Origin: a virus
Taxonomy: Duplodnaviria; Caudoviricetes
Virus record (IMG/VR): IMGVR_UViG_2870609773_000002
Location: 1 to 64,000 of that record
DNA: 64,000 bases
Direction: 5' to 3' (one strand)
Shown here: positions 25,621 through 48,327 of the stretch, piece after piece
Layout of the letters: each line of letters starts with the position of its first letter
Position numbering within the stretch: the first letter of the stretch is position 1
Position numbers and translations under genes: made by a program
Notes under the pieces: generated by a model
Told to the model about the DNA's origin: nothing
The model's database searches: none
Seen by the model: the letters and a program-made list of their open reading frames with translations, nothing else

Positions 25621-26145
25621 CTACTCCGGCCGGAAGATCCGAAGCTGAGCTTCTGTCGCGTTCAGGGTCGCCTCGATCTGGGCCAGCATGATCGTCTCTA
25701 TCTGGCGGCGCTGGTCGCCTGGAACGCCCTTCAGGCCGCGTATCTGTTGCAGCATCGCCTGAAGTCTTTGCTGCACATGTTCAGGAGTTACGTCTGCGTC
25801 GATCGCCGCCAGTGCGGGGTCCGTCTTGGTCCGCTCGCGGATCCAATCGCGGAACAGTGCGGCCGCCCCAGGCCGGCCGCGCTCGTACAGGTCGTCCGGG
25901 GTGATGGTGGCTTCGTGTGCCAGGTCGGTGATGGCGGCGGCCATGAGTACGAGTTCGCGGTCTTCCGGGACCTTCTCGCCGGACTCGATGCGTCGCCATG
26001 TCGGCTCGGACAACGCGTCGCCGGCCAACTCCTTCGCGCGTGCGGCGGCGGCGCGAGTGGAGATGCGCTTCTTGAGCCCTCCCGGGTTGTTGCGACGTTC
26101 AATGAGGAACTGAACCACTTCTGAAGGCTTGTTGAGGTCGGCCAC
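25621..26145 (-). CDS. XRE-family immunity repressor candidate
   Basis: ISTRAAAARA...LSEPTWRRIESG HTH; divergent from recombination operon. Confidence 0.7.
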   Translation of the reverse strand: MADLNKPSEVVQFLIERRNNPGGLKKRISTRAAAARAKELAGDALSEPTWRRIESGEKVPEDRELVLMAAAITDLAHEATITPDDLYERGRPGAAALFRDWIRERTKTDPALAAIDADVTPEHVQQRLQAMLQQIRGLKGVPGDQRRQIETIMLAQIEATLNATEAQLRIFRPE

Positions 26146-26429
26146 GGCGAGTCAGAGGTCCTTTCGCGGCGTTTGATGCGTCATACGAGTCTGGCGCAAC
26201 GGTATCAACTGAAGCGTCGGCTTGGGTTATGTCAGCGCAAAGACGTTGATTACGCTCCGTGACATATGCGAGGTAGCTGCGATGACGCAGAAGACGCGTC
26301 AGACGTTGCATGATGCGTCACGAAGCGATAGTGTCGGTTATGTCGGTCCGATTGTGCACACCCGAAAGGGAAACGCACTGACAAAACGCCCGACAAACCA
26401 AACCCCAAGCCACGGAGCGTCATATCGCC
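26146..26429. promoter_or_regulatory. Divergent promoter / genetic switch region with motif B
   Basis: TGATGCGTCA at 26174 and 26311, AAGACGCGTCAGACG at 26291, GGTTATGTC at 26225 and 26336. Confidence 0.65.
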
Positions 26430-43742: not shown

Positions 43743-44492
43743 TTACGTACAGGGCGTGATCCCACGTCGAGCCACCTTGAGGGGAAGTGAATGGATGGTG
43801 AAGGCGACGTCGTCAGGCCATGTGTCTAACCCGATCCAGTCATCGAAGACGGGTATGGGCTCAGGTGGTGATGTCCGCGTGGGTCTCGTCCACGTCTGTC
43901 CCTCCGTCCATATGACGGATGCATTGGCGATGGTCAATTCTTGACTGCCGCCAGTGTCGTCCAGCTTGCTCGCCGATTCCTGGAGCACGATTTGGCCTTC
44001 GCTGCACGGTTCGACGATGACTTCCCAGAGCTCAGTCGGCAGCTTGGTGGGGCGATGCAGGACGTATACGTATGCCCGCCGAGAGTTGGCGTTGCGCACG
44101 TTCCAGGACCAGGCGTCAGGGACGGTTCCGTAGGCCTCGTCGGCGATATGGATACGGCTAGGAAACGCGATCTTGGCGATGGCGTCCGCTTCGGCCTTGG
44201 CCTGTGCTTCCCTTTTCTTGTCCTCTGCCCGCTGGGCGAGAGCGTCCGCACGCTGTTGCTGGCCGAGTTCGAGAGCGTTCAAAGAGATGATGAGCGCGGG
44301 AACGGACATGAGGCCAGCGACAACGCTGGTGAGGGCGGCCCACCATTGGACGGACCAGCGGACATCGCGGAGTCTCCGGCGCTGGCGCGGCTTGAGCCGT
44401 TGGCGTTCGGCGATCACTCTTGTGGTGCGAGCTGAGGAACGCGATGCGAGACCGCGATCTATGGACGGTCGGGGGCGTCGGCGTGCGCTCAC
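43743..44492 (-). CDS. Membrane-anchored hypothetical protein (moron-like)
   Basis: TM WWAALTSVVAGLMSVPALIISL; opposite strand; atypical codons. Confidence 0.55.
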   Translation of the reverse strand: MSARRRPRPSIDRGLASRSSARTTRVIAERQRLKPRQRRRLRDVRWSVQWWAALTSVVAGLMSVPALIISLNALELGQQQRADALAQRAEDKKREAQAKAEADAIAKIAFPSRIHIADEAYGTVPDAWSWNVRNANSRRAYVYVLHRPTKLPTELWEVIVEPCSEGQIVLQESASKLDDTGGSQELTIANASVIWTEGQTWTRPTRTSPPEPIPVFDDWIGLDTWPDDVAFTIHSLPLKVARRGITPCT

Positions 44493-44569
44493 GACTGAAT
44501 ATCGTGCGCGGGCGAAGCGACGTTAGGCTGCGCGGTTTCGCGGCGGACACGAGCGGAGGAGGCGGATCG

Positions 44570-44929
44570 TTGATTGCGGTGCCGCTGTTGGCTTGCGCCT
44601 GGCGGGGTGGGTGTGTAACACTTCCGGGCGACGGAGAGACTTGTGCCCTCGGACCGATCATGGTTCGAGGGCTTTCCGCTGTTCGGGGGGTGTTGGTGTT
44701 CCCTGCGACGGCGAAGACTGCTGCTGTCCGGCTGGGCCGGGAGGCGGTGACGATCCGGCAGTGGGCGCGCCGGTATGGCGTGCGTGTGCTGGGGCGAGCC
44801 AGCCGCGAGGTCGTGTACGACTTCGCTGATCTGGCGACGATCGAGGGCTGTATCTGGCGGGGCGACGACGTGCCTGATTCGCCGGAGGGCCGGGATGCGT
44901 TGCGGGCTCGGCTGGCGGCGGCTGCGTAG
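44570..44929 (+). CDS. HTH-containing hypothetical protein
   Basis: GGAGGAGG SD + TTG; AAVRLGREAVTIRQWARRYG. Confidence 0.55.
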   Translation: MIAVPLLACAWRGGCVTLPGDGETCALGPIMVRGLSAVRGVLVFPATAKTAAVRLGREAVTIRQWARRYGVRVLGRASREVVYDFADLATIEGCIWRGDDVPDSPEGRDALRARLAAAA

Positions 44930-44954
44930 GAGCAATCAGACAGGGGTGGCTGTG

Positions 44955-45182
44955 ATGGTTCGGAAGTATCAGCGGGTGGCGGGCGCGGAGCGCGAGGCGC
45001 TGAAGGCGGAGCTGAAGCGCCGGTACATGGACGGGGAGTCGATCCGGCGGCTGTCGATCTCGACGGGCCGCTCGTACGGGTTCGTTCACCGGCTGCTGGA
45101 GGAGGCGGGGGCGCCGCTGCGGCCGCGGGGCGGCAACCAGCGGCCGGCTCCTGTGGTTGTAGACGGGCGACCATCTAGCTGA
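44955..45182 (+). CDS. Small HTH transcriptional regulator
   Basis: YMDGESIRRLSISTGRSYGFVHRLLEEAG..LRPRGG, a common actinobacterial HTH. Confidence 0.8.
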   Translation: MVRKYQRVAGAEREALKAELKRRYMDGESIRRLSISTGRSYGFVHRLLEEAGAPLRPRGGNQRPAPVVVDGRPSS

Positions 45183-45615
45183 TGCTGTTCACCCAGATGC
45201 CGATTGGGATCGAAAGGATTGCGGATACAAGAACGCCCGCGAGGAAGTAGGCGAGTTGCTGTCGCCGCTCGGCGCGGATGGTGGCCTTCGTTTCGTGGGT
45301 GAGGATGCTGCGGATCTTCTCGGCCTGTTCCTCGTTCACGGCCAGCAACTCTTGCTGTCGTTTCGCCTCTTCGATCAGTGCTGTGCGGGTTGCCTGCTGG
45401 GCTTCAAGATCTTTCTGCAACTCCTGCAGCAGCATGCCCGCCTCCGAGAAGGCAGCGTTGACTAGTTCGATACGGCGCTGGAGCCGTTTCCCGGGATCTT
45501 CCTCAGCCTCCCTGATGCGTCTACGTCTCAGGAGGCTCACCAGTTCGTTCGCCGCCACGCCGATCAACGAACTGCCCAAGACTACGAAGAGGCTTCCCAG
45601 AAGATCCATGTGCAT
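45175..45615 (-). CDS. TM-coiled coil-TM hypothetical protein (moron-like)
   Basis: Hydrophobic N- and C-termini around a heptad region. Confidence 0.65.
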   Translation of the reverse strand: MHMDLLGSLFVVLGSSLIGVAANELVSLLRRRRIREAEEDPGKRLQRRIELVNAAFSEAGMLLQELQKDLEAQQATRTALIEEAKRQQELLAVNEEQAEKIRSILTHETKATIRAERRQQLAYFLAGVLVSAILSIPIGIWVNSIS

Positions 45616-45705
45616 ATTCGATCGTGTCGGCTCTGTGCGTGTATCGGAAGTGCCCCAATCGAAACCCTGGGCCGCCCATGATCAGAGCAATCAAGATCGA
45701 TAGAA

Positions 45706-45733
45706 GAGGAACATAATTCAGGTTATGTTCCTC
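45706..45733. other. dif-like tyrosine recombinase core site
   Basis: GAGGAACATAA-TTCAGG-TTATGTTCCTC: perfect 11-bp arms, 6-bp spacer. Confidence 0.7.
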
Positions 45734-45784
45734 TCTCCGGTGTTACGCTCGAAGTGATCACCCCTTCCACGAAAGAAGATCATC

Positions 45785-45988
45785 ATGAGCGTGCGAAAGT
45801 TCCCGCTGACTCTGCGCGTCGCCGTGACCGGAGCAACACCGGATGAGATCAGAGAAGCGGCCGTGGCGCAGGCCCTCGCGTTCTTCGGGTCGAGCACCGA
45901 GCTGGACGTCATCAGCGCCGAAGCCGAGCCGGAGGGGGAGCATCACAGCCGCTACCGCGCGGTCGTCGTGTTCCGGAAAGTCGCCTGA
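45785..45988 (+). CDS. Small hypothetical protein
   Basis: Clean 67-aa ORF upstream of recombinase. Confidence 0.6.
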   Translation: MSVRKFPLTLRVAVTGATPDEIREAAVAQALAFFGSSTELDVISAEAEPEGEHHSRYRAVVVFRKVA

Positions 45989-46060
45989 TGCGCCGCGCCA
46001 GCGATAAGGCCGGGGATGCCGTCGCCGGCTTCCCGCTGCCGTTCGGCGCAGGGGACGATC

Positions 46061-47029
46061 GTGAACGCTGAGCTGATCGTCGTCCGGAGCGAAGACGTCG
46101 CGCTGCCGCTGGACCTGCCGCCGATCATTCTCGACCTGACCCGGGCGTGGCTGTGGTCGTTCGACTCGAAGAACACGCGGGACACGTACGAGCGGTACAT
46201 TCGGCGATGGTTCGAGTTCTGCAACGAGACCGGCCTCGATCCGCTGGAGGCCCGCAAGCCGCACGGCGACGTGTTCTCCCGCTGGTTCCAGGAGACGGCC
46301 CGCCGACCACCGAAGCCGAAGACAGTGGCATTAGTCCTGTCCACGGTGTCGTCCTGGTACGAGTACCTGCACGAGACCGAAGCCCTCGACGCCAACCGGT
46401 TCAAGAAGACGCGACGACCGAAGATCCCCCGCAAGCACTCCGAGACGGTCGCGCTCACCAAGGGCGAGGCGCGGGACCTCCTCCGGGCGGCCGACGCCGA
46501 CCATGGCCGGGAACGGCTGCGCACCGCGGCGCTGCTCCGGCTGCTGCTGCAGACCGGCGTCCGCATCTCCGAGGCGGTGAACGCGCAGATCGACGACCTC
46601 GGGTTCGCCCGTGGGTATCGGACGCTGCGCATCACGGTGAAGGGCGGCGACACGATTACCCGGCGGCTGCCGGTGGAGGCGACGCACGCGCTGGATGTCT
46701 ACCTCGCTGAGCGGGCGCACCGCGAAGGGGTCGAGCTGCAGGACCTGCGGGGCCCGCTATTCGCGACCTCGACGGGCCAGAGCTGGAGCAGGTCGAAGGC
46801 GTTCGAGCTGGTGCGGCGCATTGCCGCCCAGGCGGGCATCACGTCGAAGGTGGGGCCGCACTCCCTGCGGCACACCTACGCATCGCTGGCGCAGGAGGCC
46901 GGCGTCGCGATGCGGCAGATCCAGCTCGACCTCAACCACGCCGACGTGTCCACGACGGAGATCTACTTGCACAGCCGGGACCGGCTGGAGAAGGACGCCT
47001 CTCAGGTGGTGGCGTCGCTGCTGGAGTAG
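46061..47029 (+). CDS. XerC/D-like tyrosine recombinase
   Basis: SAM-like N-domain; TGVRISE, VKGG, HSLRHTY, LNHADVSTTEIY; no arm-binding domain. Confidence 0.9.
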   Translation: MNAELIVVRSEDVALPLDLPPIILDLTRAWLWSFDSKNTRDTYERYIRRWFEFCNETGLDPLEARKPHGDVFSRWFQETARRPPKPKTVALVLSTVSSWYEYLHETEALDANRFKKTRRPKIPRKHSETVALTKGEARDLLRAADADHGRERLRTAALLRLLLQTGVRISEAVNAQIDDLGFARGYRTLRITVKGGDTITRRLPVEATHALDVYLAERAHREGVELQDLRGPLFATSTGQSWSRSKAFELVRRIAAQAGITSKVGPHSLRHTYASLAQEAGVAMRQIQLDLNHADVSTTEIYLHSRDRLEKDASQVVASLLE

Positions 47030-47451
47030 GAGGAGCACGTGCCCAGGTCGAGAACGAGCGCGCTGGACAAGTCGGCATGGACGCACCACTGCGGCGCGAT
47101 CAACCTGGGCACGTGGACCGACCGCGCGGTGTGCGGCGGCTGCCGGTACTCGGTGGGTCACGCCGAGGATGTCGAGCAGTACCGGCTTGTGCGTGTCTGG
47201 TGACGCAGCAACGCGCAATCTTCGCATTGGTCGCGTTTCTGGACATTAGAAACGTCGATCACCCGAGATGTGTGCGTCTCAGCTGCACGCTGATGCGTAA
47301 TTGGGGCTGTCTGAAGGCCATTTGGATGCGTCTGAATGTCGATCTTGTTAGCGTTGCTCTGAGACGTTTTCGCGGGTCACCGACATAACGGCAAGTGCAA
47401 AGGCTGGTGACCCTCGCAAATAGGTCACCGGCGGGCGGATGGTCGAGTCAA

Positions 47452-48327
47452 TCAACCGGTAGGGGGAAACTCCTCATCGTCCTCTTGATTGCCACTGATC
47501 ACTGTGATGTCCAGCTTCGTGCGCAGCCAGCAGGCGCCTCGATGGAAGACCCAGGCGGTAGGAACCGCGAGTAGAGCTGAACCCCACCCCTGTTCCATCA
47601 CAACGTCAATCAAGGCTGACAGGGTCACAGTACCGATGACCAGCCAGGTGCGGATCTCGGAGGAGAGTGCCCAGCAGGTGGCACGGATAAGCGGTTCCAG
47701 CGGGTGTGCGGCAGGGTTCGCCAAGGTGCGACGCAGCGCCCAGATGCGGCTGAGTTGGCGAAGCGCGTAGTAAATCTGCATGCTTCCGGTGGCCTTCGCC
47801 TTAGCAAGCTCGTGAAGCTCGCTAAGGATCTCTTCTCCGTAACGGCTTCGGTGCCTAGCGGGCAGAACGTGCATAGTGAGATTGACGATGGTGCTGGCCT
47901 TGCGAGCAACGGGACTCGTCTTGTCCCGTTGTCTCAGAGCGTCCAGGTGGGCCGCTGCGGATGCCCTCACTAGACTCCTGGTCTCGAATATGACCTCGGT
48001 AGCCAGATCCAAGGCTGCGATCAGCTCAAGGCGAGACGGCTCATAGGAAGACTCGAATGCGGCTTGCAGCTGATCGAGGACGGAGAGGCGCGTTTCCAAA
48101 ATGTCGGAGGCGTGAATATCTGCCCTGGTAAGGGCGACATGAAGATCAAAATGATGATCGCTGATAGTCGACAGGGTCAGCCTGACTTCGGAATCGGTGC
48201 CACTCAGCGCGGGCTTGTGCTGAAGTACTTTTCGCAGGTGCACGATGGCGTCGGTCAGCTTGCCGAGGAGGGCGTGAGCATGGCCTAGGGCCTCGCTTCG
48301 CGAGGATTCTTCGGCGGTTTGGATCAC
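47452..48327 (-). CDS. Membrane protein, PadR-partner type
   Basis: LPARHRSRYGEEILSEL motif then two TM helices. Confidence 0.6.
   Translation of the reverse strand: MIQTAEESSRSEALGHAHALLGKLTDAIVHLRKVLQHKPALSGTDSEVRLTLSTISDHHFDLHVALTRADIHASDILETRLSVLDQLQAAFESSYEPSRLELIAALDLATEVIFETRSLVRASAAAHLDALRQRDKTSPVARKASTIVNLTMHVLPARHRSRYGEEILSELHELAKAKATGSMQIYYALRQLSRIWALRRTLANPAAHPLEPLIRATCWALSSEIRTWLVIGTVTLSALIDVVMEQGWGSALLAVPTAWVFHRGACWLRTKLDITVISGNQEDDEEFPPTG

Follow-up and report, generated by a model that had tools for sequence, protein, structure and literature searches.

That a phage or plasmid may pair a tyrosine recombinase gene with a palindromic site beside it is already a well-known principle. 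In Cre/loxP of the phage-plasmid P1, Dre/rox, and VCre/VloxP, the gene for an arm-less tyrosine recombinase lies beside a single palindromic site with an asymmetric spacer, and pairs of the Cre type act on sister copies of the site, resulting in dimer resolution or in circularization of an episomal prophage. In TnpI/IRS of Tn4430, ResD/rfsF of F, and MrpA of SCP2*, a small arm-less tyrosine recombinase has its resolution site just upstream, overlapping the promoter. Here we describe a dif-like palindrome and the Xer-like tyrosine recombinase gene downstream from it in a 64,000-nucleotide stretch of Caudoviricetes DNA (positions 1 to 64,000 of IMG/VR record IMGVR_UViG_2870609773_000002; this whole stretch is referred to as the window).

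Some described systems resemble this locus in other ways. The site of the Xer-type recombinase XerS is genetically linked to its gene (PMC5357621). Tyroviruses, which are large temperate Bacillus phages with several tyrosine recombinases, have been proposed to have a mixed integrated and plasmid lifestyle, and one of their recombinases, gp50, is encoded beside a perfect 11-6-11 inverted repeat with a 6-bp core, a pair of untested function (PMC9703825). Literature searches found no description of the phage family considered here, and isolated phages provided no near or distant DNA match beyond a ParB segment. The closest proteins in isolated phages share 32%–34% identity with the recombinase (none above 34%), and homologs on actinobacterial plasmids share 35%–38% (none above 38%).

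In our view, and with slightly better than even confidence, palindrome and recombinase constitute a self-contained module that resolves multimers of an episomal phage or circularizes it, with the site overlapping the promoter of the recombinase operon.

A palindrome linked to an Xer-like recombinase

The palindrome is a perfect 12-6-12 inverted repeat, with arms AGAGGAACATAA (45705–45716) and TTATGTTCCTCT (45723–45734) and an asymmetric (nonpalindromic) spacer, TTCAGG (45717–45722). A first-pass annotation of the window had described it as an 11-6-11 palindrome (45706–45733) extendable to 12-bp arms, with the geometry and inner core of dif, about 330 bp upstream of an arm-less tyrosine recombinase. 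All of this was confirmed: the sequence is exactly as claimed, the measured distance to the GTG start codon at 46061 is 327 bp, the protein has no arm-binding domain, and ACATAA-N6-TTAT is common to the phage site and the chromosomal dif of the host (see below). The palindrome is the sole match in the window at three or fewer mismatches (the expectation in shuffled sequences is 0), and is unique in the whole 12.9-Mb genome. On the 96.7-kb replicon, TTATGTT is confined to two copies, one in each arm. Perfect 10-6-10 palindromes of any sequence are expected 0.18 times per simulated window; the window holds four others, all G+C-rich hairpins, and the dif-like palindrome alone is A+T-rich. It sits in a 170-bp gap between a divergent minus-strand open reading frame (ORF) and the plus-strand recombinase operon (Table 1).

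The GTG start of the recombinase fits its 322-amino-acid homologs; starting at the ATG at 46016 would give 337 amino acids. Pfam recognizes Phage_integrase (PF00589, 4e-27) and a SAM_1 core-binding domain (the SAM-like N-domain PF02899, residues 51–119 in the 337-amino-acid numbering). Residues 9–281 of Escherichia coli XerD (1a0p) align with residues 25–306 of the 322-amino-acid protein, leaving only ~24 extra residues at the N terminus, and the catalytic residues R168, K194, H267, R270, H293, and Y302 align with the E. coli XerD motifs. The NCBIfam models for XerA, XerD, and XerC match over the full length at ~1e-40 to 1e-43, but far below their equivalog cutoffs (XerA, 147.8 vs. 220 bits; XerD, 145.1 vs. 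329.6; XerC, 136.6 vs. 335; for XerS the values are 77 vs. 267). Because the Xer models match below cutoff, the protein aligns with XerD, and the catalytic set is present, it classes by sequence as a member of the tyrosine recombinase superfamily, in its simple arm-less Xer-like branch, and not as an ortholog of XerC, XerD, XerA, or XerS.

Related loci were gathered by scanning a genome collection for the recombinase (nine loci in Nonomuraea, Planotetraspora, and Sphaerisporangium) and from protein searches and a family-wide genome search. Whether homologs carry a similar site had been left by the first-pass annotation as something to be checked, and the result is clear-cut: a CATAA-N6-TTATG palindrome lies 106–1480 bp upstream, on the same strand, in 17/17 recombinase homologs at ≥52% identity, which come from several Streptosporangiaceae genera, and in 0/19 homologs at 40%–50% identity. 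Those at 43%–50% have no palindrome within 1.5 kb, and when four of them were checked to ~10 kb on each side, three had none and the fourth (L041) had only a site at the 3′ end of the gene. The site-bearing recombinases group in a single clade (support 95/88), and none of the 17 deviates at any of the six catalytic residues. The arm classes GGAACATAA (with variants GGGACATAA and GTAACATAA), GGTCATAA, and CCCCCATAA map onto recombinase subclades. The intervening small ORFs and the divergent gene differ among loci; the recombinase is the sole constant neighbor of the site.

When the 17 sites are aligned, each arm is seen to be invariant at its inner five positions. At the next four positions, 13 cells are changed on both sides, three cells are unpaired, and no change is one-sided; in all 204 cells of the alignment there is no one-sided change of the G-U type. 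The outermost two to three arm positions are symmetric only in this phage. Because the inner five positions are invariant, the next four change only symmetrically, and the outermost lack symmetry across the family, we take the functional arm to be 9 bp (45708–45716 and 45723–45731). The earlier description of the arms as fully symmetric is therefore correct for the 12 bp of this phage, and has to be shortened to 9 bp per arm for the family. The spacers are diverse (12 different sequences among 17 phages), yet the first base is always T, the last is either G or C, and no spacer is palindromic.

Two related observations should be recorded. In a distant homolog (L041/L044, G018:C22 near 100.2 kb; ~46% identity), the site is asymmetric, CCATACATAA-TCCTCG-TTATGACCCG, and retains the usual CAAGATCGCT flank; the unit as a whole lies inverted across the recombinase stop codon, with no second site within 10 kb, and the site could be rearranged or hybrid. 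Elsewhere, a perfect 11-6-11 palindrome of the same geometry, TTGCTGCATAA-GTGCGA-TTATGCAGCAA (L054, G272:C1:4309446), has no recombinase homolog within 3 kb. Other CATAA-N6-TTATG sites in this relative (G272) and in the host chromosome were set aside because their contexts are unrelated.

The phage circle, its integrated relative, and host dif

The window corresponds to positions 138–64137 of the 96,733-bp second contig (C2, 67.9% G+C) of a 12.9-Mb genome of a Nonomuraea-type actinomycete, the chromosome of which (C1) is 12.78 Mb in length with 71.5% G+C. C2 is a tailed temperate phage, with genes for the large terminase, portal, MuF-like head protein, scaffold-like protein, and major capsid protein at 51–62 kb. 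It also encodes an O-like replication initiator and a C5 methylase, and a gene with a ParB-N domain adjoins the terminase gene. As stated in the first-pass annotation, the phage also has an integrase, which is of the arm type and is encoded on the minus strand at the start of the window (Table 1).

The end of C2 runs on into its start through an 89-bp stretch with 94% identity to C1:7753925-7754012, which its translation suggests to be the 3′ terminus of a host gene for an acyl-CoA-dehydrogenase-like protein. Because the ends join within this chromosomal match, the phage attachment site (attP) spans the ends of the contig, C2 assembles as a circle, and the chromosomal attachment site (attB) is present once and is unoccupied. 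In N. maritima, the contig that carries the module is 94,716 bp in length, phage-like throughout, and has a 38-bp terminal overlap; the Planotetraspora contig, of 95,476 bp, has the phage map in circularly permuted form and contains the attP junction internally. An N. thailandensis relative of ~100 kb and ~87% nucleotide identity (G001:C2:6451200-6552200, loci L012–L018) is integrated in the chromosome. Three assemblies therefore present the phage as a free circle, and one as an integrated element.

The N. thailandensis prophage is collinear with the whole of C2, and the DNA on either side of it matches C1 at 8.555 and 8.566 Mb. Between these two points C1 has ~11 kb of other DNA, and this locus (8.555–8.566 Mb) may be an insertion hot spot. 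Because the integrase end of C2 has no blastn match in the prophage, we infer that this relative has a different integrase and a different attB. Palindrome and recombinase are both intact inside the prophage; the site is present in a single copy in that genome, with none at the prophage ends. Because it is intact and internal in a prophage integrated through a different integrase, the palindrome is not the attP of integration in the one integrated relative examined. Nine related genomes were also searched for a second copy of the site under an attL/attR reading, which was rejected: eight have one strong copy, and the ninth (G007) has a second, with one mismatch, on another contig that was not analyzed further.

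The host dif is ACTTGACATAA-TGTTCA-TTATCGAGCAA (G000:C1:6042867-6042890; locus L058:4861-4899). The chromosome has a single ACATAA-N6-TTAT, located at 6.04 Mb of its 12.78 Mb, and the 24-mer TTGACATAATGTTCATTATCGAGC occurs once in each of the 15/15 genomes of the genus. The reverse complement agrees with the dif of Frankia alni, as quoted by Kono et al. (PMC3025954), at 22/28 positions, including 11/11 in the XerD-side arm TTATGTCAAGT. Thus, as a by-product of this analysis, the chromosomal dif of Nonomuraea has been pinned down. A tyrosine recombinase gene 8 kb away (C1:6050642–6051523; 124 bits on the XerD model, on which the host XerD and XerC score 323 and 275 bits) might be the marker of an element integrated beside dif.

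A comparison with host dif had been envisaged earlier, and it yields both a likeness and a difference. The phage arms (TTATGTTCC) match the inner TTATGT of the host XerD-side arm and diverge further out, and the spacers differ as well; the phage site thus resembles a pair of XerD-type half-sites in inverted orientation, with outer specificity positions of their own. Mimicry of host dif was rejected, because the closest chromosomal match to the phage site has only 18/24 positions (none is found at three or fewer mismatches), and host dif differs in the outer arms and spacer.

Flanks, overlap with a putative promoter, and neighboring genes

Table 1. Features of the recombinase locus and the integrase of the phage (window coordinates)
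Feature	Position	Strand	Basis or remark
Arm-type tyrosine integrase, 419 amino acids, beside attP	1–1260	−	Pfam Phage_integrase, SAM_3, Phage_int_M
Divergent ORF, 146 amino acids, no family match	45175–45615	−	Weakly conserved in some relatives
Conserved left flank, CAAGATCG(C)TA(A)GA-type block	45692–45704	+	Fixed 8 bp from 9-bp arm
dif-like palindrome AGAGGAACATAA-TTCAGG-TTATGTTCCTCT, proposed core recombination site	45705–45734	+	Conserved in 17 loci
Extended −10-like motif TGTTACGCT (TGnTAnnnT)	45741–45749	+	6 nucleotides past palindrome
First operon ORF, 67 amino acids, no family match	45785–45988	+	Other small ORFs replace it in related loci
Xer-like arm-less tyrosine recombinase, 322 amino acids from GTG	46061–47029	+	Pfam, NCBIfam, XerD alignment
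Cys-rich ORF, 54 amino acids, no family match	47039–47203	+	9 nucleotides past recombinase stop, GAGGAG in front

Conservation among the loci begins abruptly at CAAGATCGC, 8 bp before the 9-bp arm, and then spans the palindrome. Because the left flank block stays constant where the arms change, it would not be read by the specificity determinants that read the arms; it could be an accessory or promoter element, and the motif has no other intergenic copy on the replicon. On the right, the TGnTAnnnT motif begins 8–10 nucleotides after the conserved 9-bp arm. In close relatives its N positions vary and its T, G, and A positions are held, and it is followed by GTGATC, a ribosome-binding site, and the first ATG. 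We read it as a putative extended −10 element, in which case the right arm would cover the −35 and spacer region; another −10-like hexamer, CATAAT, is present in the left arm. A strict sigma-70 consensus and terminator scan of 45100–47500 found nothing, and so it is conservation that argues for a promoter here. Because the site overlaps this conserved promoter-like block, a regulatory role besides recombination is likely.

The first-pass annotation had raised the alternative that the palindrome is an operator, pointing to related half-sites at 26225, 26336, and 47380. These have only 7–8 nucleotides in common (GTTATGT(C)), are not palindromic, and lie in other contexts, with the one at 47380 in the loop of a conserved hairpin, and we rejected them as one operator family. 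Repeats of TGATGCGTCA or GATGCGT occur at 26174–26183, 26311–26320, 47293–47299, and 47326–47334, that is, in the gap beside a weak HTH_31 protein (25621–26145, minus strand) and downstream from the recombinase operon; these are candidate operators of the phage repressor and are unrelated to the palindrome. The conserved hairpin itself (47355–47420) contains the block CTGAGACGTTTTCGCNGGTCACCGACATAACG within an inverted repeat (47367–47381 and 47406–47420), and is located between the recombinase operon and a convergent minus-strand gene (47452–48327). It is common to L004, L005, L008, and L009 and is terminator-like but without a T tract, and in L005 its loop is a full ACATAA-N6-TTAT.

The operon consists of the 67-amino-acid ORF, the recombinase, and the 54-amino-acid Cys-rich ORF, in this order. 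The last is found 3′ of the recombinase in seven of the related loci checked, directly after it in six (L002, L004, L005, L006, L008, and L051) and ~1.2 kb further on in L009, and might be an accessory or directionality factor. The N-terminal stretch of the divergent 146-amino-acid ORF reads as hydrophobic. Beyond it, a plus-strand ORF (44775–45182) with a strong Pfam match to HTH_58 (7e-26) overlaps a longer minus-strand ORF (44158–45174) that is about equally conserved by tblastn, so assignment of the coding strand at 43.7–45.2 kb needs care.

Probable function of the proposed module and known systems

It is likely, in our judgment, that the recombinase binds the palindrome, given the Xer-like enzyme and the dif core of the site, their strict linkage, the symmetric covariation of the arms, and the conserved catalytic residues. 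Two identical monomers would bind the inverted 9-bp arms. Synapsis would bring together two copies of the site, whether these are carried by a circular phage genome in dimeric or multimeric form or by the redundant ends of DNA entering the cell. Strand exchange across the asymmetric 6-bp spacer would then yield monomeric circles. The module would thus serve the episomal circular phage, with chromosomal integration handled by the arm-type integrase. Recombination between sister copies (multimer resolution or end circularization) would be the natural reaction because there is a single intact site, never at prophage ends, and such a reaction would have a purpose because the phage is a free circle in three assemblies. 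Because the site immediately precedes the promoter-like block and covers part of it, the bound recombinase probably also represses transcription of its own operon.

Several points weigh against this interpretation. PF13614 and PF01656 give no match to a ParA-type partition ATPase on C2, so the assemblies make stable plasmid-like maintenance only a possibility, and the free circles could instead reflect spontaneous induction. The covariation of arms and recombinase would also arise for any coinherited phage regulator. The site overlaps conserved promoter-like elements, and part of its conservation may be regulatory. In addition, so simple a scheme does not accommodate the distant homolog L041, whose asymmetric site is located 3′ in the gene, at its end. 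The missing partition system and the promoter overlap help to keep our confidence in the complete reading only a little above even. The dimer-resolution system proposed in the first-pass annotation accordingly gains from the dif geometry, the invariable linkage, the compensatory arm changes, the free circle, and the empty attB, and loses from the lack of a ParA-type gene.

The best surviving alternative, which we nevertheless regard as improbable, is that the protein is a secondary integrase of the Brujita, Arthrobacter-phage, or Gordonia-phage type and that the palindrome is a simple attP, with the attB absent from sampled hosts. The nearest isolated-phage proteins (at 32%–34% identity) are indeed the sole “tyrosine integrases” of Arthrobacter and Gordonia phages, and the recombinase also matches PDB 5vfz (Gp33), which we take to be the Brujita integrase; the hybrid-looking asymmetric site of one distant homolog also speaks for this possibility. 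Yet the host chromosome offers no match better than 18/24, and eight of the nine related genomes have one strong copy only, with the near-identical second copy of the ninth on another contig. Furthermore, the integrated relative used another integrase, at the prophage end, with the site left intact and internal, and the fully symmetric arms show no trace of exchange with a different attB.

Slightly less probable again is that the palindrome is solely an operator, or a nucleic-acid hairpin, for another dimeric phage regulator at divergent promoters, with its proximity to the recombinase incidental. It does lie in a divergent intergenic region, between the conserved left block and the −10-like motif, HTH_58 and PadR regulators are encoded within 3 kb, and the stem of a hairpin would show compensatory changes too. 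Against this stand the inner CATAA-N6-TTATG, which is the Xer/dif core, the strict conservation of the catalytic residues, and the presence of one site per phage without further operators. The HTH_58 and 54-amino-acid ORFs were not detected in the 3-kb flanks of L003 and L010, the G-U-type one-sided changes number 0 in 204 cells, and the repeats of the candidate immunity region are a different motif (TGATGCGTCA).

Less probable still is that host XerC/XerD act on the site, as they do on cer/psi or on integrative mobile elements exploiting Xer (IMEX), with the phage recombinase modulating or replacing one partner. The host encodes both proteins, and TTATGT is common to the phage arms and the XerD-side arm of host dif. 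But both phage arms are XerD-like and none is XerC-like, the outer 5/11 positions and the spacers (TTCAGG vs. TGTTCA) differ from host dif, the arms vary among phages whereas those of host dif are constant across the genus, and no element of this phage family was found at dif. The IMEX possibility was rejected on the integrated relative, which lies at the locus equivalent to C1 8.555 Mb with a single internal site and none at the prophage ends. Finally, a DNA inversion or excision switch with a second, diverged site is very improbable: although an ACATAA half-site lies ~350 bp downstream from the recombinase (47382) and the corresponding place in L005 has ACATAA-N6-TTAT, in the window the second half is missing and the spacer is different, the downstream block lies in the loop of a conserved hairpin, and no inverted or deleted arrangement occurs among the 17 loci.

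Returning to the recombinase/site module, we offer a broader picture only tentatively, as it is in our judgment possible rather than probable. The ~95-kb Streptosporangiaceae phages may be facultatively episomal, either integrated via an exchangeable arm-type integrase or present as a free circle without ParA/ParB, with the Xer-like module keeping the circle monomeric and heritable and repressing its own operon, and with the three arm classes and the enzymes that diverged along with them acting as naturally orthogonal recombinase/site pairs. In any case, the uncharacterized second recombinase of large actinomycete phages is now tied to a specific, directly testable DNA site, and the finding suggests how a temperate phage that has an integrase can persist as a free circle. 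If active, the module would provide at least three enzyme/site classes (those with GGAACATAA, GGTCATAA, and CCCCCATAA arms), all from high-G+C hosts, as candidate orthogonal tools of the Cre/lox type for Streptomyces and related producers.

Comparison with the described systems yields partial likeness to each. XerS/difSL of streptococci and lactococci, XerH/difH, and archaeal XerA/dif likewise use one Xer-type recombinase and a dif-like site, but those systems are chromosomal and placed at the replication terminus, whereas the site here is on a 96.7-kb phage replicon, and the module coexists with host XerC/XerD and a separate host dif. Like TnpI/IRS, ResD/rfsF, and MrpA, the locus has an arm-less recombinase with a site upstream of its own gene, over a promoter-like block; unlike them, it has no repeated accessory recombinase-binding motifs that we could recognize, only one short conserved flank that is unlike the arms. 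Tyrovirus gp50, which we compared by description, is similarly one of several tyrosine recombinases of a large temperate phage and is encoded beside an inverted repeat, although the host belongs to another phylum and the gp50 site follows a gene of the structural module.

Like Cre/loxP, the locus combines a recombinase gene with a linked site made of inverted repeats around an asymmetric spacer (here at 17/17 loci). The differences are that the site is 9-6-9 with a dif core rather than 13-8-13 as in loxP, that the protein scores as Xer-like and Cre is not among its PDB sequence matches, and that this phage, unlike P1, has a normal integrase and no ParA/ParB pair. The module would most likely work like Cre/loxP of phage P1.

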